NCBI GenBank assembly: GCA_050261575.1
Contig: JBLNDL010000063.1
Span: 1-54,762 of the forward strand
Length of the DNA stretch: 54,762 nucleotides
Direction of reading: 5' to 3'
DNA from: Sphingomonadaceae bacterium
GTDB lineage: Bacteria; Chloroflexota; UBA6077
Position numbers and translations under genes: made by a program
Notes under the pieces: model-generated
What the model was told of the DNA's origin: nothing
The model's input: the letters and a program-made list of their open reading frames with translations, nothing else
Database searches by the model: none
Shown here: in pieces, positions 16,910 to 35,692 of the stretch
Position numbering within the stretch: the first letter of the stretch is position 1
How the letters are laid out: every line of letters begins with the position of its first letter

Positions 16910-17599
16910 TCACGCGGCCGCCGGCCGCTGCCGCCTACCAGCGATGGTCAGCAGGTTCTCCACGTAGACCACGCCGGCGGTGTACCAGGCGTCCCTTTCG
17001 GCGGCCTGCCGCTCCTCCACGTTGGTGACCTGGCCCTGGAGCCGGACGGTGCCCGCCACCGACTTCACGGTGATCTGAGTGGGATCGGCGATGCGGGCAT
17101 CGCTGTCCAGGGCTGCGCGCACGTCCTGCTCGATCTCCGCATCGGGGCGCCGCCTGTCTGCGGAGACGGTGAGCTCGTTGGAGACGTCCACGACTCCATC
17201 CGTCTGCCAGGCGTCCTCCTCCGCGGCCCGCCGTTCCGCCTCGCTGGAGACGGTCCCCGAGAGGCGGACGATCCCTTCGGCGACGTTGACCACCACGCTC
17301 CGGTCGTCAACCCGGGGATCACGTTCCAGGGCGGATGCCACGTCGGCGGCGACCTGTTCCGCCGGCCGCAGGATGTCGGGCTTCACCTGGAGTTCGTTTC
17401 TCACCTCGGTGACCCCTTTGATCCGCCAGGCATCCTCGGCTGCCACCAGCCTGTCGACGTGGCGCGCTACCGTTCCGGAGAGGGTGACTATCCCTCGCTG
17501 TACCCGAACCGAGATGCCCTCGGGCCGGAGACGGGAGTCGTGATTCAGGACTTCGAGGACCTCGCTGGCTATCCTCTGGTCGCTCTGGCTCTCGGGCAT
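16910..17599 (-). CDS. triple BON-domain protein
   Basis: Three repeats of GIVTLSGTV...AAEEDAW..GV..V.NEL; GGAGG upstream of ATG 17599. Confidence 0.92.
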   Translation of the reverse strand: MPESQSDQRIASEVLEVLNHDSRLRPEGISVRVQRGIVTLSGTVARHVDRLVAAEDAWRIKGVTEVRNELQVKPDILRPAEQVAADVASALERDPRVDDRSVVVNVAEGIVRLSGTVSSEAERRAAEEDAWQTDGVVDVSNELTVSADRRRPDAEIEQDVRAALDSDARIADPTQITVKSVAGTVRLQGQVTNVEERQAAERDAWYTAGVVYVENLLTIAGRRQRPAAA

Positions 17600-17698
17600 T
17601 GGTGAACGGCCCTCCGCAATAGAGCTCTCAGCCTTCAGCGATCCGCTTCCGACTCCTGCCCCGAGGCTGTCTGCGGATCGCAGCGCTGTAGCCACTCG

Positions 17699-17714
17699 AG
17701 CAACGAGTATGCCA
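17699..17714 (-). promoter_or_regulatory. sigma54 (-24/-12) promoter of the BON gene
   Basis: Minus strand TGGCATACTCGTTGCT. Confidence 0.8.
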
Positions 17715-17942
17715 CCGGCGAACGGCGGGGAACGATCCAACGATCGGCCCGTTCCCAGCCGTCGAACGGCTGGCCGTCCACTCGCCCGAGTGGGGTGGCG
17801 GGGAACGCAGCCATCGGCCTTTCCGTGGGTGTGCTTGGCGGGCGAGCGGATGCCCCCTCGCAAGCTGTCTGAATGGGAGACGATTCGGTCGCCGGACCAC
17901 ATCAACGTTGATGCATCGACTGTGCCAATGGGCAAACCGGGT

Positions 17943-18018: not shown

Positions 18019-18034
18019 TGGCACGGTCCCTGCT
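18019..18034 (+). promoter_or_regulatory. sigma54 promoter P1 of the rRNA operon
   Basis: TGGCACGGTCCCTGCT. Confidence 0.75.
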
Positions 18035-18111: not shown

Positions 18112-18127
18112 TGGCACCGATCGTGCA
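18112..18127 (+). promoter_or_regulatory. sigma54 promoter P2 of the rRNA operon
   Basis: TGGCACCGATCGTGCA; predicted +1 near 18138, just ahead of the leader hairpin and boxA-like GAACCTTAACAG. Confidence 0.75.
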
Positions 18128-18220
18128 CTTGACATAACCGGTCAGGGTCGCGAGGGGCGACCGGCGCGAACCTTAACAGCCGAACAGTGGTGAGAGGGTG
18201 TGGCGCCTCGAAGAGAGGCT

Positions 18221-19823
18221 TTTCCGGTGGGTTTGATCCTGGCCCAGGACGAACGCTGGCGGCGTGCCTAGTACATGCGAGTCGTACGGGCCGGCGAAAG
18301 CTGGCCAGTGGCAGACGCTCGAGTAACACGTGGGCAACCTACCCCCAAGCGGCGGACATTCGGCCGAAAGGCCGGTAAATCCGCCATGTGGTCGCCTGGC
18401 ACTAGGCCTGGCGGCTAAAGCCGATGAGGCGTTTGGGGAGGGACCCGCGGCCCATCAGGTCGTTGGTGGGGTAACGGCCCACCAAGCCGATGACGGGTAG
18501 CTGGTCTGAGAGGACGGCCAGCCTTGCGGGGACTGAGACAGGGCCCCGACTCCTACGGGAGGCAGCAGTATGGGATCTTGCGCAATGGGCGAAAGCCTGA
18601 CGCAGCGACGCCGCGTGGAGGAAGAAGGCCTTCGGGTCGTAAACTCCTTTTGCCGGGGAAGAAGGCCCGATACCAGCGCTCGAGAGCGGGCCATTAGCGT
18701 CCGAAGCTGATGGCCGGAGCGATGGTTCACGTCGGGCTTGACGGTACCCGGCGAATAAGCCCCGACCAACTACGTGTCAGCAGTCGCGGCAATACGTGGG
18801 GGGCGAGCGTTGTCCGGATTCATTGGGCGTAAAGAGCGCGTAGGTGGTGGCACCCGTCGGCCGTGAAAGCCCTCGGCTCAACCGAGGAAGGGCGGCCGAT
18901 ACCGTGTCGCTTGGAGGACGGCAGGGGGAGGCGGAACTCCCGGTGGAGCGGTAATATGCGTTGATATCGGGAAGAACCTCAGTGGCGAAGGCGGCCTCCT
19001 AGACCGTTCCTGACGCTGAGGCGCGAAGGCGTGGGGAGCGAGCGGGATTAGGAAACCCCGTTAGTCCACGCAGTAAACGATGGGCACTAGGTCCGGGGGG
19101 CATTGACCCCTTCCGGGTCGAAGCTAACGCGTTAAGTGCCCCGCCTGGGGACATACGGCCGCAAGGCTGAAACCCAAAGGAATTGACGAAGACCCACACA
19201 AGCGGCGGAGCACGTGGTTTAATCCGAATCGGACCGTAGAACCTTACCAGGGCTGGATGTCGGGAGTAGGAACCGGAAACGGGGACGACCCGTAAAGGCG
19301 GGGACCGGCACAGGGCTGAATGGCTGTTGTCAGTTCGTGTCGTGAGACGTTGGGCTCAGCCCCACAACGAGCGAAACCCTCGCTGCTAGTTAGCCGTCGT
19401 CAAACGGCTTCTCTAGCGGGACCGCCGGGTAACCGGGAGGAAGGAGGGGATGACTTCCAGTCGGCATGGCCTTGATGCCCTGGGCCTCACACGTGCTACA
19501 ATGGCCGGTACAAAGGGCTGCCAAGCCGCGAGGCGGAGCTAAACCCAAAAAGCCGGCCTCAGTTGGGATTGCAGGCTGCAACTCGCCTGCATGAACGTGG
19601 AGCCGCTAGTAACCGCCGGTCAGCGAAACGGCGGTGAATGTGTCCCTGGGTCTCGCACACCTAGTCCGCCGTGTCCTGGGTGCCTTCCCGCGCCGAAGCC
19701 CCGCTTGCCCCCACTGTCTGAGTGGACCATGGGGACGGCAGGGCGAGGGCGGGACAGGTGACCGAGGACACGGGCGTAGCAAGGTGGTCGTACCGGAAGG
19801 TGCGGCGGAAATCTGCCTTTTCC
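18221..19823 (+). rRNA. rrs: 16S rRNA, highly divergent variant
   Basis: Colinear 16S landmarks (TTTGATCCTGGC, ACTCCTACGGGAGGCAGCAG, 530 loop, AAAGGAATTGAC, h45 GGAA loop) with many substitutions at invariant sites; ends approximate. Confidence 0.95.
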
Positions 19824-19988
19824 GGCAGAACGGCCGGGTCGATCCCCGGCGTTCCGTCCGGACAGTCTCGAAGCCTCTGATGCAGTCTCTCCAAGAGGCG
19901 CTCCACCCTCTCACCATTGTCGGCCGAGGGGTCGCATGTCCAGCACCTTTACAACCAGATAGCTTTCATTCCGCTCACGAGTCAGCAG

Positions 19989-23017
<3,029 letters not shown>

Positions 23018-23087
23018 TGGTGCTCGGCGGCAATGGAAGCTATCTGGTTGGAAAGGTGACGGTACAGCGGCCCTTACACTCTTTGCT

Positions 23088-23154: not shown

Positions 23155-23445
23155 ATGGCCATGCGACTCTACGTCGGGAACCTCCCCGACGACGTGAAGG
23201 ACGAGGACCTCATTGCCCTGTTCGGGCAGGCGGGCACCGTGCAGTCGGCTGAGGTGGTCCGCCAGACCACCGGACAGTCCGCCGGATACGGTTTCGTCGA
23301 GATGGCATCCGACACCGAGGCCGAGGATGCCATCCGGGCCTTCAACGGCTACATGTTGGACGGCAACGAGATCGAGGTGAGGGTCGCGACTCCGGAGGGG
23401 ATCGGCTATCCCCCCAGCTACGGGGGGCTCACCTCGGAGGGGTGA
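23155..23445 (+). CDS. RRM (RNP-1/RNP-2) RNA-binding protein
   Basis: RNP2 LYVGNL, RNP1 AGYGFVEM, AIRAFNG; GGAGGAG RBS. Confidence 0.95.
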   Translation: MAMRLYVGNLPDDVKDEDLIALFGQAGTVQSAEVVRQTTGQSAGYGFVEMASDTEAEDAIRAFNGYMLDGNEIEVRVATPEGIGYPPSYGGLTSEG

Positions 23446-25179: not shown

Positions 25180-25635
25180 CTACGCCGCCTTCTCGGCGGG
25201 ACCTTCTCGGTGGGCTTGCTGCTCGGTGCGGCTGCGCACCTCTTCCTGGATGTCCAGCAGCTCGTCGACGTCGACGGGAACGGTGCGCCGGACCGTCTCG
25301 CTCGGGTGGCTGAGCCGCTTCCAGTGGGTTTCGTTTCGCTTGTCGGAAAGGAGGTGCTGGACTTGCCTCTCCAGCTCGGCCGCCACATTGACGAGGCCGC
25401 TCTCCAGGGTCTCCGCGTTCGCGCTGGCGAAGAACCGGTCGCCGGGGAGTTCCAGCACCACTCTGACGTTGTAGAACAGGTCGGTCACCGGTAGGCGGAT
25501 CAGCCGGACAGCGGCCATAACCGAATCGGACGGGTAGTCCTGGAGAAGGTGGTTCAGCAGCCCCAGCTTCTCGCGCACCAGCGCCTGCACCGCATCGGTG
25601 AGGTCCAGATCCTTGACGTGGATTTGAAAGTACAT
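25180..25635 (-). CDS. HPF/RaiA (ribosome hibernation factor) family protein with C-terminal extension
   Basis: IHVKDLDLTDAVQALVREKL, LELPG..FFASANAETLESGL...LERQV. Confidence 0.85.
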   Translation of the reverse strand: MYFQIHVKDLDLTDAVQALVREKLGLLNHLLQDYPSDSVMAAVRLIRLPVTDLFYNVRVVLELPGDRFFASANAETLESGLVNVAAELERQVQHLLSDKRNETHWKRLSHPSETVRRTVPVDVDELLDIQEEVRSRTEQQAHREGPAEKAA

Positions 25636-25678
25636 GGCGCCCCCTTTCTCCCTTACCCTCTGGGAGGAGGTTCGATTG

Positions 25679-26260
25679 TCAGTCGCGTGCCCATCTCACC
25701 CGTGTGAAGGTCTCGAAGGGCAGCCGCTGCACCGTTAGCCTGCCCTTGAAGGCGCTTCTGAGCCCGCTCCCTATCCGTCGCGCCAGCGCCTGGCTGGTGG
25801 TGAGGATGTAGATGTAGTCTTCTCTGTCGTGAACGGCGGCAAGCCGGGCCGTGGGATTCGTGGCGCGCGCACGCTTCTCCTCGTTGCGCACCCAGTTCAG
25901 CACCTCCTCCTTGTGGTCCTGCATCCACTTCCCCCGAAGCACCACCTCTCCGTCGTACATCTGGCGCTGGATCCGCTGGTCGGCCGGGCACAACTCCACC
26001 CGCACGTTGGGGTCGTGCCGGAGGCGCCGGTACTCCTCCTCGTCCAGATGCCAGAGCTTGCCGTCGGAGATGGCGTGGCACACCGGGCAGATCGTCCGGC
26101 GGGGCGCGGCATTGGGGCCTTCGAACCCCTTGGCTGGGTAGTTCCACTTCTGCGTCTCGCCTTCCACCGGCCACTGGGCCTCGTGCCAGGTTGGCTCAAC
26201 TCGCCCCGGCAGGATCGGCCGGGTCCCCGACTTGACCGCGGGGGTGCGAACTCTACGCAT
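25679..26260 (-). CDS. BCAM0308-family zinc-ribbon protein
   Basis: CPVCHAI..GKLW, CPADQRI, GEVVLRG, NPTARL, TTSQALARRIG, RVRW. Confidence 0.8.
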   Translation of the reverse strand: MRRVRTPAVKSGTRPILPGRVEPTWHEAQWPVEGETQKWNYPAKGFEGPNAAPRRTICPVCHAISDGKLWHLDEEEYRRLRHDPNVRVELCPADQRIQRQMYDGEVVLRGKWMQDHKEEVLNWVRNEEKRARATNPTARLAAVHDREDYIYILTTSQALARRIGSGLRSAFKGRLTVQRLPFETFTRVRWARD

Positions 26261-26263
26261 GTC

Positions 26264-27106
26264 TTACCTCCCCGTCGAGAGATGGGTTCTGGCCTGGAAA
26301 TCGCGGAACAGGGTGTGGTCCACCTCCAGGTGGGCTCGAACGGCGCGGATACCGGCGATGTCGCTGAGGATGCGACGTATCCGCCGGGCGTCGGCGAGGG
26401 ACTGGACCTTGCCGTTGATCTCGACCGCTCCGTCGACGACGCGCATCTCCTGATCCATCACCACGATGTCGTTCGTAGCCAGGGCCTGGGAGGCCAGGCT
26501 GAACAGGTCGATGTCGTCCGTGTACTCGGGCATGGCAACCTTGATGTTGGAGACCACACCGCGTATCCCCTTGACGTCGGCGGCCGTTCGGACGGCGCGC
26601 TCCTGGTCGGACAGCTTCTGTGCGGTCCCCATCAACCGGGCTATGCCGTGGGAGACTCGGGATCCGACCCACTCGAAGCCGGAGGAGTCCAGCCGCGCCC
26701 GCACCTTCTCGTCGAGGTCTTCGTCGCTGAGGTAGCCGTCCGCCGCCACGGTGAGGGCATTCTGGACCAGCTCGACGCCCGGGATCGACTCCACCAGTTC
26801 CTCTGCGTCCATCTTCTGGCCCGCGCAATCCACCACGCCGGAGAGGATGGCGATGCGACCCTCGGTCTTGACGGTTATCCGGTCGTCCAGCCCGTCGCCC
26901 AGATCCACCCGGCCGTCCGCGGCCAGGGCAATGAGTGCCTGACCGGAGATCTCCTGATCCGCCAGGCTGCTACCTACCTTGCGGTCGGCCAGCCGTCGAT
27001 CGTCCAGGCTTCCTCGCTCATCGGGCTCGTGGAGGGTGGTGTCGGTGGGAGGGTAGGGTTCCCGTGCGAGTGCATCCTTCTCGTACTCTCGTGGTGACTC
27101 CATCAT
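26264..27106 (-). CDS. triple BON-domain protein
   Basis: Three BON-like repeats (LSGVVD...IPGVELVQNAL; GIRGVVSNI; GIRAVRAHL). Confidence 0.88.
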   Translation of the reverse strand: MMESPREYEKDALAREPYPPTDTTLHEPDERGSLDDRRLADRKVGSSLADQEISGQALIALAADGRVDLGDGLDDRITVKTEGRIAILSGVVDCAGQKMDAEELVESIPGVELVQNALTVAADGYLSDEDLDEKVRARLDSSGFEWVGSRVSHGIARLMGTAQKLSDQERAVRTAADVKGIRGVVSNIKVAMPEYTDDIDLFSLASQALATNDIVVMDQEMRVVDGAVEINGKVQSLADARRIRRILSDIAGIRAVRAHLEVDHTLFRDFQARTHLSTGR

Positions 27107-33746: not shown

Positions 33747-34196
33747 ATGAAAAGGGGCTCGACTTCGGTGCACTTCTACAAGCGGATACTGATTCCCTTC
33801 GATGGCTCGGAGGGCGCCACAAAGGCGCTGCGGCGGGCGCTCCAAGTTGCCAAGGATCAGGCTGCCGCTGTCACGGTCTTCTACGTCGACGAGCACCTGC
33901 CTCGCTATGCGAAGGGGGTGGGAGAGATCCGGGAAAGCCAGGAACTGAGGGAGGCGGAGGCGGCCGAGCTTGAATCTCGGGCTCGCGCCGTTGCTGCTGA
34001 GTATGGTGTGAGGATCAAGTTCGAGACCGTCGCTGGACACGCCGCCCTTGCGATCCTGAGCCGTGCGCGGGAGGGGGGCTTCGATCTCATCGCCATCGGC
34101 CGTAGTGGGCGCTCGGGTCTGTGGGGGATGCTGCTAGGAAGCACCACGGCCAGGGTGGTGGATCAGGCCGCCTGCGACGTGCTGGTGGCGCGCTGA
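33747..34196 (+). CDS. universal stress protein
   Basis: YKRILIPFDGSE, DLIAIGRSGRSG, LLGSTTARVV; start may be GTG 33768. Confidence 0.95.
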   Translation: MKRGSTSVHFYKRILIPFDGSEGATKALRRALQVAKDQAAAVTVFYVDEHLPRYAKGVGEIRESQELREAEAAELESRARAVAAEYGVRIKFETVAGHAALAILSRAREGGFDLIAIGRSGRSGLWGMLLGSTTARVVDQAACDVLVAR

Positions 34197-34221: not shown

Positions 34222-34237
34222 TGGCACGGAACCTGCT
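34222..34237 (+). promoter_or_regulatory. sigma54 promoter of the ABM gene
   Basis: TGGCACGGAACCTGCT. Confidence 0.75.
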
Positions 34238-34280: not shown

Positions 34281-34613
34281 ATGGCCGGCAGGGCGATGTT
34301 TCTGTTGCGCATCAAGCCGGGCGAGGAGGCCGAGTTCGAGCGCCGGTGGATGGAGGCTCTGGACGACCTCCGAGCCCACAAGGGCTTCCGGTCGCGCGAG
34401 TTGATCCGAGTCATCGATGGGGACGGAAGCTACGTGGTGCTCTCCGAGTGGGACACTCCCGAGGACTACTTCGAGTGGCGCAACAGCCTGGATCGGGCGC
34501 GCATTTACGGCGACGAGCTGTCGCCCCACTTCGCCGCGCCCCCTGTCACGGGTGTGGGCGAGGTGCTCGTCCGCATGGAGGCGACGGCTCCGCTACCGGG
34601 CGAGCCTCAGTAG
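34281..34613 (+). CDS. antibiotic biosynthesis monooxygenase (ABM) family protein
   Basis: IKPGEEAEFE, GFRSRELIR, YVVLSEWDT..F.EW. Confidence 0.88.
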   Translation: MAGRAMFLLRIKPGEEAEFERRWMEALDDLRAHKGFRSRELIRVIDGDGSYVVLSEWDTPEDYFEWRNSLDRARIYGDELSPHFAAPPVTGVGEVLVRMEATAPLPGEPQ

Positions 34614-35117
34614 CTCCAGGCCGAGGTTCATCGCGTCCAGCGCCCGGTTGATCAGGACGTTCCTTCTCTGGTTCTGCAAGCGGTGTACGCACCAGGTGCT
34701 CTCTATTGGCTCGCCTTTCTGTGCGTCGAAGGTGTCGGTGCGCTCGATGACGATGTGAGGAAAGCGAGTGGGGAAATCCCTCCGCAGGAGCGTGACTCCC
34801 CGCTCGGTATCCTCCCATTGGGCAGTCGGGCCTCCCTCGGACCCATCGTGCAGAAACCGGATGGTGGATGAGAGGATCTCCTCCACCTTGGAGAGCCGCA
34901 GCGCCCTGGGGTCCACCGTGGCAGGCAGGGGCAGGGCGCCCAGCCGATTCGGCTCACGGTAGTACTTGGCCAGAAGGTCCAGGGTGTCGTGTTCGCCCTT
35001 GAGCAGCTTCATCAAGGTGTTCCGCACGTGGACCCCGTAGCGGCGCTCGTCTTCGTTGAAGTCTGGCAGCGGATTCGATCCCAGCAGTTCGTCTCTGTCG
35101 ACCCGCGTCTGCGCCAT
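34593..35117 (-). CDS. hypothetical protein (174 aa)
   Basis: GAGGA RBS, normal composition; no family recognised. Confidence 0.7.
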   Translation of the reverse strand: MAQTRVDRDELLGSNPLPDFNEDERRYGVHVRNTLMKLLKGEHDTLDLLAKYYREPNRLGALPLPATVDPRALRLSKVEEILSSTIRFLHDGSEGGPTAQWEDTERGVTLLRRDFPTRFPHIVIERTDTFDAQKGEPIESTWCVHRLQNQRRNVLINRALDAMNLGLELLRLAR

Positions 35118-35200
35118 TGCATCGTCCTCGCATTCAGACGTGAGCTATCAGCCACGAACCGGCAGCTTGCGGCTGATAGCCGCTCGCCGACTGCCGGCTG

Positions 35201-35494
35201 CTACGCGTAGGGGGCAACCAGCTTGTCCCACAGCCCCTGGCTGATCTCACTCTTCGGCACGTAGCAGGATCCCTCTGGGATTCGCTCTCCCGATTGGCCC
35301 TGGATTATCCCTCTCTCCGGATGGGAGATGTCGAAGTAGAGTTCGTCATCCCTCATGGGCTCGCCCGTCGTGCAGTAGTTGATATCCCTCAGCTCGTCGT
35401 CGGAGAAGCTCTGAAGCCACTCGAAACGCTCCTTCAGCTTCTCGGCCGTCTTCCTGCGGGCAACCGGCCCCTTCGACCCCATGCCTTGGCTCAT
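35201..35494 (-). CDS. hypothetical protein (97 aa)
   Basis: AGGAGG RBS; SDDELRDI...YFDI..PERG...YVPKSE...LWDKL. Confidence 0.8.
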   Translation of the reverse strand: MSQGMGSKGPVARRKTAEKLKERFEWLQSFSDDELRDINYCTTGEPMRDDELYFDISHPERGIIQGQSGERIPEGSCYVPKSEISQGLWDKLVAPYA

Positions 35495-35573
35495 CGTTCC
35501 ACCTCCTAGCCGCCCCTGACCCTTGCGAGAGGGGCACTGTTGCATCGCCCTGTGGCTGCGAACCAGCCAGGGG

Positions 35574-35589
35574 AGCAACGGCCGTGCCA
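35574..35589 (-). promoter_or_regulatory. sigma54 promoter of the two hypothetical genes
   Basis: Minus strand TGGCACGGCCGTTGCT, full consensus. Confidence 0.85.
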
Positions 35590-35595
35590 GCAAAC

Positions 35596-35611
35596 TGGCA
35601 CTGGACTTGCT
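35596..35611 (+). promoter_or_regulatory. sigma54 promoter of the GH94 gene
   Basis: TGGCACTGGACTTGCT, full consensus. Confidence 0.85.
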
Positions 35612-35692
35612 CTCTCGGCCTCTCTGCTTGCCAGCGTGTCACGCTCCAGACCGGAGCGGCTTGCAGCTAAGGACGACTGGGGGTTCGGGTCG

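Follow-up and report, generated by a model that had tools for sequence, protein, structure and literature searches.

We analysed the whole 54,762-nucleotide stretch of contig JBLNDL010000063.1 (assembly GCA_050261575.1), referred to here as the window, which belongs to a Chloroflexota metagenome-assembled genome (MAG; G000) of 3.72 Mb in 103 contigs with an estimated contamination of 4.76%. On its plus strand the window carries a 16S-23S ribosomal RNA (rRNA) gene pair in which bases of the functional core are replaced in both subunits. An Rfam scan detected neither a 5S gene after the 23S nor a tRNA gene in the spacer. We regard it as probable that this pair is a conserved, conditionally expressed and translation-incompetent paralogue of the rRNA operon, which stands beside canonical operons in one soil Chloroflexota family. 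In the following, G labels denote the genomes compared, every one of them a MAG, and L labels further loci or metagenome contigs. The rRNA genes and one expansion lie as follows.

18221-19820, plus strand: divergent 16S-like rRNA gene (RF00177, 1218.9 bits against a threshold of 50, model positions 1-1533)
18671-18733, plus strand: 63-nucleotide expansion in the helix-17 region of the 16S (cmscan insert; alignment columns 450-530)
19989-23019, plus strand: divergent 23S-like rRNA gene (RF02541, 2185.1 bits, above the gathering threshold, model positions 1-2925)

Compared with these scores, the canonical 16S genes of relatives reached 1449-1543 bits with RF00177, and the canonical 23S gene of G001, a genome of the same family, reached 2773.9 bits with RF02541. 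Four full-length divergent 16S sequences (G000, G004, L052 and L058) were 84-91% identical to one another, with G000 at 84-89% to the other three, and 73-76% identical to canonical 16S sequences of the same order, including that of G003 from the same family. The divergent sequences formed a clade with 100/100 support on a long stem, and their tip branches (0.05-0.08) were similar to those of canonical sequences (0.03-0.09). The helix-17 expansion was absent in G004, and L052 and L058 had other inserts of different length.

We then assigned the bases of the 16S functional core, using a MAFFT alignment on E. coli K-12 rrsH for numbering, with which Infernal alignments agree. States that differ among members are given in the order G000, G004, L052, L058.

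19663-19671, plus strand: 5' strand of the decoding site, with C1400 changed to A (19663), U1406 to C and A1408 to G (19671) in all four lineages
19770-19779, plus strand: 3' strand of the decoding site, with G1491 changed to A, A1492 to C (19771), A1493 to G (19772), U1495 to G and A1500 to G
A1492: C in all four divergent 16S
A1493: G in all four
A1408: G in all four
C1400: A in all four
G926: A in all four
C1054: A/A/A/U
G966: U/U/C/U
G530: G/A/A/C
U1406 with U1495: C with G

Positions G530, A1492, A1493, A1408, C1054 and C1400 carry the E. coli bases in all seven canonical relatives. In the predicted structure of the divergent 16S, the internal loop of the decoding site becomes a helix with one bulged G. 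Changes in at least one divergent member were found at 208 of the 971 positions that are invariant in E. coli and six canonical relatives, and they were densest between 1401 and 1500, where 33 of 52 invariant positions were altered. G1338, A1339, G1401, G1405, A1518 and A1519 were kept, the last two within the GGAA loop of helix 45 (h45), which is retained in all four divergent lineages.

The 23S showed losses of the same kind. States are ordered G000, G004, G002, G003, with numbering on E. coli K-12 and agreement from Infernal.

22371-22373, plus strand: P-loop G2251-2253, UUU in all four divergent 23S
22723, plus strand: A2602, G in all four
22706, plus strand: U2585, A/A/C/A
C2452: A/A/C/A
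A2453: G in all four
About 22674-22677, plus strand: A-loop, with U2554 changed to A and one base deleted, and so shortened
A1913: C in all three sequences that cover it (the G003 fragment does not reach this position)
22775-22786, plus strand: sarcin-ricin loop 2654-2665, identical to E. coli in all four

Besides the whole sarcin-ricin loop, the divergent 23S keeps A2451, G2553, U2506 and A1067, and U2555 varies among its members. The P-loop and A-loop changes appear to fit no coherent re-specification and no single altered tRNA end, because G2553 of the A-loop still expects C75 and the P-loop no longer does. In working ribosomes, the bases lost from the two subunits inspect the codon-anticodon helix and position the CCA ends of tRNAs, and at several of these sites one substitution has a dominant lethal effect in E. 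coli. With these mRNA- and tRNA-contacting bases lost, particles built on the divergent RNAs would be unable to translate in the known way. An earlier note on this DNA had recognised the changed 3' tail of the 16S, but overlooked the loss of the decoding centre and of the tRNA-binding loops of the 23S.

The tail is the following feature, defined by Infernal alignment and folding.

19807-19829, plus strand: altered 3' tail and hairpin, with CUGCC replacing CCUCC

As that note had stated, the tail reads GGAAATCTGCCTTTT at 19807-19821 where GGATCACCTCCTT is expected, and TCTGCC (19812-19817) can pair with GGCAGA (19824-19829); both the letters and the positions are exact. Infernal places AUCUGCCUUU opposite the Rfam consensus AUcACCUCCUUu, and all seven canonical 16S sequences of relatives read GGATCACCTCCTTT here. 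The anti-Shine-Dalgarno (anti-SD) core CCUCC (1535-1539), present in the seven canonical relatives, is thus CUGCC in G000 and GUGCC, CCGAG or CCCCC in the other lineages. The hairpin had a predicted energy of -9.6 kcal/mol as a 30-nucleotide tail. A 45-nucleotide tail gave -19.5 kcal/mol compared with -13.3 +/- 2.9 kcal/mol for 300 shuffles (z = -2.1), which taken alone is marginally beyond chance. The equivalent hairpin of G004, GTGCC...GGCAC, differs from that of the window by one compensatory change, and L052 and L058 have no pairing between the anti-SD position and the spacer. An alternative stem, CGGAAA (19806-19811) with TTTCCG (19819-19824), is available in the window, and a stem directly after h45 (GCCGGAA-like with UUCCGGC-like) is possible in all four divergent lineages.

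The idea that the hairpin is a special device did not hold, since canonical pre-16S of relatives folds an equivalent CUCCUU/AGGGAG hairpin at -6.1 kcal/mol. The hairpins of the window and G004 are co-varied counterparts of this ordinary hairpin between anti-SD and spacer. In both cases the tail pairs with the sequence just downstream; the difference is that here the paired bases are changed on both sides, and that two of the four divergent lineages keep only the stem after h45.

The use of GGAGG/AGGAG by the genes, also claimed in the earlier note, was borne out genome-wide in a survey of 2460 long, high-GC3 open reading frames (ORFs) of G000. GGAGG occurred at 24-33 per 1000 ORFs at spacings of 5-9 before the first ATG or GTG, compared with 0.4-4.9 per 1000 further upstream and 1.5-9.3 per 1000 before out-of-frame controls, an enrichment of about 10-fold. 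Within the window, a 5-mer SD core preceded a candidate start in 24 of 42 crude ORFs, a generous count that takes the best of several starts. With CUGCC in place of CCUCC, the divergent 16S cannot pair with these GGAGG-type SD sequences, as the note had said. The AGGCAG-type SD for which it proposed a genome-wide check did not appear: GGCAG, AGGCA, GCAGA and AAGGC were flat at all spacings before the 2460 ORF starts. An alternative SD matching the new tail was therefore rejected; such a 5-mer preceded 9 of the 42 ORFs in the window, which is unremarkable. With a different sequence at the anti-SD position in every one of the four lineages, and no enriched SD to match the new tail, we conclude that the anti-SD was not redirected towards another SD. 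Instead, CCUCC disappeared as one element of a wider relaxation of translational constraint.

These results bear on whether the divergent subunits could form a specialised or naturally orthogonal ribosome, one that translates leaderless mRNAs or a small private mRNA set via the new tail or by other means. Such a ribosome would account for an operon that is conserved, structured and apparently regulated (see below), for the retention of A2451, G2553, G1338/A1339, h45 and the sarcin-ricin loop, and for a less derived operon type in G039 (same class, other order) that retains CCUCC, A1492/A1493, G530 and C1054; Vibrio also offers a precedent for a variant rRNA operon that yields specialised ribosomes (PMC10697612). 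It would, however, have to work with A1492, A1493 and A1408 replaced in four of four lineages and the decoding loop closed into a helix, with C1054, G926 and C1400 likewise replaced in all four and G530 variable, and, in the large subunit, with UUU in the P-loop, G at A2602 and a substituted U2585 throughout. The tail differs among lineages without an enriched complementary SD, the P-loop and A-loop changes match no single altered tRNA end, and the neighbouring genes have ordinary SD sequences. We consider a specialised ribosome unlikely, and the translation-incompetent paralogue remains our preferred reading.

We next assessed constraint on the operon. G000 and G004 were 89% identical in the 16S and likewise 89% in the 23S, compared with identities at third codon positions of 55% for the BON gene and 77% for the DCD gene of the same two genomes, and of 47% for the M20 gene between G000 and G002. 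An RNAalifold structure of the four divergent 16S contained 512 pairs with 98.2% of cells paired, and 45 pairs had changed on both sides in a compensatory manner; because the structure was predicted from the same four sequences, the paired cells and some of the covariation are inflated. Shuffles gave 19.6 +/- 3.1 such pairs (0 of 500 reached 45), and sliding the partners gave 1-10. The 530 pseudoknot also covaries, with G506-C525 changed to A-U and C507-G524 changed to A-U. These results show that the divergent operon preserves the rRNA fold by compensatory substitution and that its rate of evolution is far below that of third codon positions.

Upstream of the 16S and around its ends, the following elements were found.

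18019-18034 and 18112-18127, plus strand: two tandem sigma-54-type promoters facing the 16S, TGGCACGGTCCCTGCT and TGGCACCGATCGTGCA, respectively
18171-18209, plus strand: leader, with a boxA-like CCTTAACAG followed by the 5' strand of the pre-16S processing stem
19895-19923, plus strand: 3' strand of the pre-16S processing stem, complementary to 18180-18209 and conserved in G004
17700-17714 and 17913-17927, minus strand: two sigma-54-type -24/-12 motifs facing the BON gene

The leader is nearly identical in the four divergent operons and homologous to the canonical leaders of the order, and the processing stem formed by 18180-18209 with 19895-19923 is about 29 bp long. The canonical-like boxA leader and processing stem show that the operon descends from the lineage's own rRNA operons. 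Sigma-54-type sites were defined by -24 GG and -12 GC elements of the TGGCAC-N5-TTGC type at fixed spacing. TGGCAYG-N4-NTGC motifs occurred at about -105 to -113 and -183 to -222 in all four divergent operons and in none of seven canonical ones, in an upstream spacer that is otherwise poorly conserved. A relaxed pattern had seven matches in the window compared with 1.48 +/- 1.35 expected, four of them in the spacer between the BON gene and the 16S. Motifs equivalent to those facing the BON gene were present in G004, L052, the G039 type, G001 and G003. Around the operon, no sigma-70 promoter-like site was found and terminator-like sites were at chance level. RpoN is encoded (Sigma54_DBD, 130.8 bits, in a 483-residue frame), and G000 has a single NtrC-type activator, located on contig C23, with the architecture REC-Sigma54_activat-HTH_8. 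It is a well-founded inference from these motifs that the operon has exchanged the usual rRNA promoters for a conserved pair of sigma-54-type promoters and is under sigma-54 control.

Further sigma-54-type motifs lie at 34222-34236 (plus strand), 35575-35589 (minus strand) and 35596-35610 (plus strand), in the neighbourhood of a Usp gene (33747-34193) and of two short genes that gave no Pfam match (34593-35144 and 35201-35638). The first called gene downstream of the plus-strand motif at 34222 begins only at 35510.

Constraint on fold and leader matters for a second possibility, that the locus is a pseudo-operon in decay, which arose by duplication of an rRNA operon, lost its function and now drifts without any role. 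The loss of universally conserved functional bases, the variation of G530, U2585, U2555 and the anti-SD among members, the missing linked 5S and tRNA genes and the failure to find the operon in G001, a 97% complete genome, which is consistent with dispensability, would all suit decay. Drift is harder to reconcile with 84-91% identity across genera where third codon positions are 47-77% identical, with the 45 compensatory pairs, with tandem promoters, boxA leader and processing stems conserved amid a poorly conserved spacer, and with canonical-like tip branches and an invariant sarcin-ricin loop and h45. On this evidence a pseudo-operon seems quite unlikely, and a conserved paralogue that no longer translates explains the data better.

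The divergent 16S gene is the sole 16S gene in the G000 assembly. Two other contigs of this assembly, C74 and C18, begin with an identical 121-nucleotide end of a different 23S gene. C74 starts with the last 125 positions of this other 23S, followed by a 5S and two tRNA genes, and C18 diverges after 121 nucleotides; the end they share is 80-81% identical to the end of the window's own 23S. Over 400 nucleotides, spacer and 5S included, the C74 stretch was 83% identical to G003:C197 and 81% identical to G001:C61, and in G001 the counterpart continues from the complete 23S gene of 2773.9 bits. The shared 23S end on C74 and C18 therefore points to at least two canonical-type 23S genes broken at contig edges. 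Both types occur together in G003, which has a canonical 16S of 1543 bits with a CCUCC tail and a divergent-type 23S fragment that is 91% identical over 731 nucleotides. G004 and G002 carry the divergent type at 86% identity over about 3 kb, and in G001 only the canonical type was seen. The earlier note had argued that the host needs another, canonical 16S; the canonical 23S ends and the coexistence in G003 favour this, but the support is indirect, as the assembly contains no canonical 16S of G000. On this indirect evidence, the divergent operon appears to be a paralogue beside canonical operons and not the working rRNA of the organism.

A binning or assembly artefact, by which the divergent operon or the canonical fragments came from another organism, is conceivable for a 103-contig MAG with some estimated contamination, rRNA regions being often mis-binned, but is very improbable, given that the operon is interior to a 54.8-kb contig of typical GC (65.3% compared with 65.4% for the genome), that flanking genes have syntenic orthologues in the family (DCD 81-87% identical in nucleotides in G001 and G003, BON 63-75% in amino acids), that the canonical fragments match family operons including the spacer, that both types occur together in G003 with a comparable pairing in G039, that single-copy ribosomal proteins speak against two mixed genomes, and that an organism with only divergent rRNA could hardly translate.

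A lone 5S gene, 96-98% identical to the 5S of C74, lies mid-contig behind a tRNA gene in G000 (G000:C56:51885-52001), and G039 likewise has a lone 5S gene (C29). Such lone 5S genes may serve operons that lack their own.

The divergent type was also sought more widely. Of 66 genomes of the class, four had the UUU P-loop signature, and all four belong to family f1; of 401 genomes sampled from the phylum, three had a relaxed P-loop signature. The 16S decoding-site pattern occurred in genome contigs only in G004, G039 and one unrelated locus, and among metagenome contigs 7 of 10 loci were relevant. In metagenome contigs the divergent type represents two further lineages, L050/L052/L054 and L058. 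The DNA libraries that matched best were soil metagenomes from a single study, which may represent the source sample. G039 holds the less derived operon mentioned above.

G039:C34:68612-73180 (L010, L087): G039-type operon (1167.7 bits for the 16S and 1867.2 bits for the 23S)

In addition to the canonical bases that it retains, this type has G2252A, C2452G and G926U, while U1406C/U1495G and A1500G are common to it and the divergent clade. Its CCUCC is followed by GGAGG in a tetraloop hairpin. Its surroundings include a BON gene, with a sigma-54 motif at position -122, and G039 also contains 5' ends of canonical 16S genes, located at two contig ends. The G039 type was also present in metagenome contigs L049, L053 and L057. 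This context suggests an old paralogue in this Chloroflexota class that may have lost its translational features stepwise.

Two irregular 16S genes were seen among the sequences compared. The annotated 16S of E. coli strain SMBL (NZ_CP061914.1, L083) is 1519 nucleotides long and not 1542, which looks like assembly indel errors. The canonical-type 16S at G005:C55:21686-22960 (L009) has only 1275 nucleotides (1229.6 bits), apparently reflecting an internal deletion of ~200 nucleotides or an assembly gap.

The neighbouring genes are as follows.

16910-17935, minus strand: BON-domain gene (Pfam BON, 153 bits, three repeats), divergent from the rRNA operon; its true start is probably near 17620-17700
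23155-23445, plus strand: gene for an RRM-domain RNA-binding protein (Pfam RRM_1, 76 bits), directly after the 23S
25180-27106, minus strand: apparent operon of a BON gene (26264-27106), a gene for a 193-residue protein (25679-26260) and an S30AE gene (25180-25635)

The BON gene upstream of the divergent 16S was also found in G004 (75% amino acid identity), in L052 (55%, partial) and in the G039 type (36%), and it stood beside none of the canonical loci tested. An RRM gene (53% amino acid identity) likewise lies behind the divergent 23S fragment of G003, but not behind the 23S of G002. The 193-residue protein had a sub-threshold NMD3-like match (22.8 bits compared with a cut-off of 24.9). A tblastn search of G000 found no second copy of the hibernation-factor-like S30AE protein. 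Hsp20 and Usp genes are also nearby. A second set of ribosomal proteins was looked for with 28 queries and not found in G000: 27 of them matched one place each, and rpmC matched none. In tblastn, the best G000 match to E. coli EF-Tu was only 33% identical; canonical tuf seems absent from the assembly, probably through a contig break after rpsL-rpsG on C77.

For expression we used contigs of four RNA libraries, most of whose cover comes from conserved parts of other organisms. Three soil RNA libraries contained contigs of 151-317 nucleotides that showed no differences over divergent-specific parts of the 23S (21304-21454 and 21915-22499) at a depth of 2-9. We take this as a hint of expression.

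According to the proposed mechanism, the divergent RNAs would be made only when an enhancer-binding activator fires. They would fold and be processed like rRNA and would bind the single set of ribosomal proteins in the cell, and GTPase factors might be bound through the intact sarcin-ricin loop. The resulting particles would be unable to translate. The most likely role would then be to tie up or park ribosomal proteins and factors, thereby lowering or reshaping translation in stress or dormancy. A sink or parking role fits the BON, hibernation-factor-like, Hsp20, Usp and RRM genes nearby, and it is our best guess. More tentatively, the operon could encode a bacterial 'pseudo-ribosome', that is, a selected two-subunit particle that neither decodes nor forms peptide bonds, is switched by a two-component/sigma-54 system, sequesters ribosomal proteins and GTPase factors and parks translation in stress or dormancy; this possibility we hold to be less than even.

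Several points weigh against the paralogue reading and its extensions. The genomes are MAGs throughout, a canonical 16S of G000 itself did not turn up, and none of the genomes compared is a closed one that joins the two operon types on a single chromosome. Cover by the RNA-library contigs is thin and might stem from DNA carry-over, and the 16S tail (19770-19936) is uncovered in three of the four RNA runs, with a depth of 61 in one for which no piece is listed. The sigma-54 assignment derives from motif conservation only. Genome-wide the motif occurs 54 times compared with 19 in a reversed-sequence control, and we claim no sigma-54 regulon, as the genes behind the other matches are mixed (GreA, response regulators, SOD, RNR, PrkA, a methyltransferase and others) and share no theme. 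Adjacency to the BON gene is not universal, since the BON/DCD locus of G003 and G001 has no rRNA within 1.4 kb. The variation of G530, U2585 and the anti-SD among members also fits slow decay, and the pairing statistics carry the circularity noted above. The retention of A2451, G2553, G1401, G1405 and the sarcin-ricin loop makes some unorthodox activity possible, and the parking role is conjectural.

rRNA is the textbook molecule with an unchanging core, and A1492/A1493 and G2251/G2252 are regarded as the same in every organism. The divergent operon replaces such bases in both subunits, yet it is conserved across genera, keeps an rRNA-like fold and has sigma-54-type promoters. If it is expressed, bacteria may use rRNA paralogues as regulators or scaffolds, a use so far supported in one eukaryotic parasite only. 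There is also a practical consequence. A divergent copy can be the sole 16S in a MAG, as here, and at about 75% identity it would misplace the organism at phylum-level distance. Such copies escape standard primers: the 515F site (window 18770-18800) reads GTGTCAGCAGTCGCGGCAA and not GTGCCAGCAGCCGCGGTAA, and standard amplicon surveys would therefore miss or mis-prime the divergent 16S.

In the literature searched, we found no description of a comparable bacterial operon. Engineered orthogonal ribosomes carry an altered anti-SD that uncouples the subunit from cellular mRNAs, and these pairs combine it with a matching SD on the target mRNA and an intact decoding centre; neither a matching SD nor an intact decoding centre was found here. 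The variants that form specialised ribosomes diverge by only a few percent and have intact functional cores, whereas the 16S described here is about 25% diverged.

Heterogeneous rRNA operons and specialised ribosomes have been reviewed (PMC9586635). The variant operon rrnI of Vibrio vulnificus also lies beside canonical operons and is conserved among relatives (PMC10697612), but variants of this type are reported to make translating ribosomes that prefer a subset of mRNAs, whereas here the bases of the functional core are replaced. Small subunits without SD pairing, as here, are known from anti-SD-deprived ribosomes produced by M. tuberculosis MazF (PMC12274833) and by RelE1 (PMC12620021) and from anti-SD sequestration in Bacteroidia (PMC7797042). 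Those cases involve post-transcriptional cleavage or protein masking on otherwise normal, translating ribosomes, while in the divergent operon the gene itself lacks the anti-SD, and decoding bases are missing as well.

Archaeal ribosomes with a divergent peptidyl transferase centre have been described, with less such variation in Bacteria (bioRxiv 10.1101/2024.11.12.623245). As in the window, they show natural variation at positions of this centre that are immutable in E. coli. The archaeal variants are working ribosomes with rearranged base triples, whereas the divergent RNAs here stand beside canonical copies and have also lost the P-loop and decoding bases. In Plasmodium falciparum, a variant allele of the large-subunit rRNA acts as a dominant-negative translational repressor (bioRxiv 10.64898/2026.06.17.732804). 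Both that allele and the operon described here are genome-encoded, independently evolved divergent rRNA paralogues with a changed peptidyl transferase centre and a retained rRNA fold. The Plasmodium variant is expressed at a defined time and lowers translation, whereas a function is only inferred here. It also belongs to a eukaryote and affects just the large subunit, which continues to bind mRNA at start sites. In the bacterial operon the two subunits are both derived and have lost the decoding centre and the P-loop, and the switch is apparently a sigma-54 promoter.

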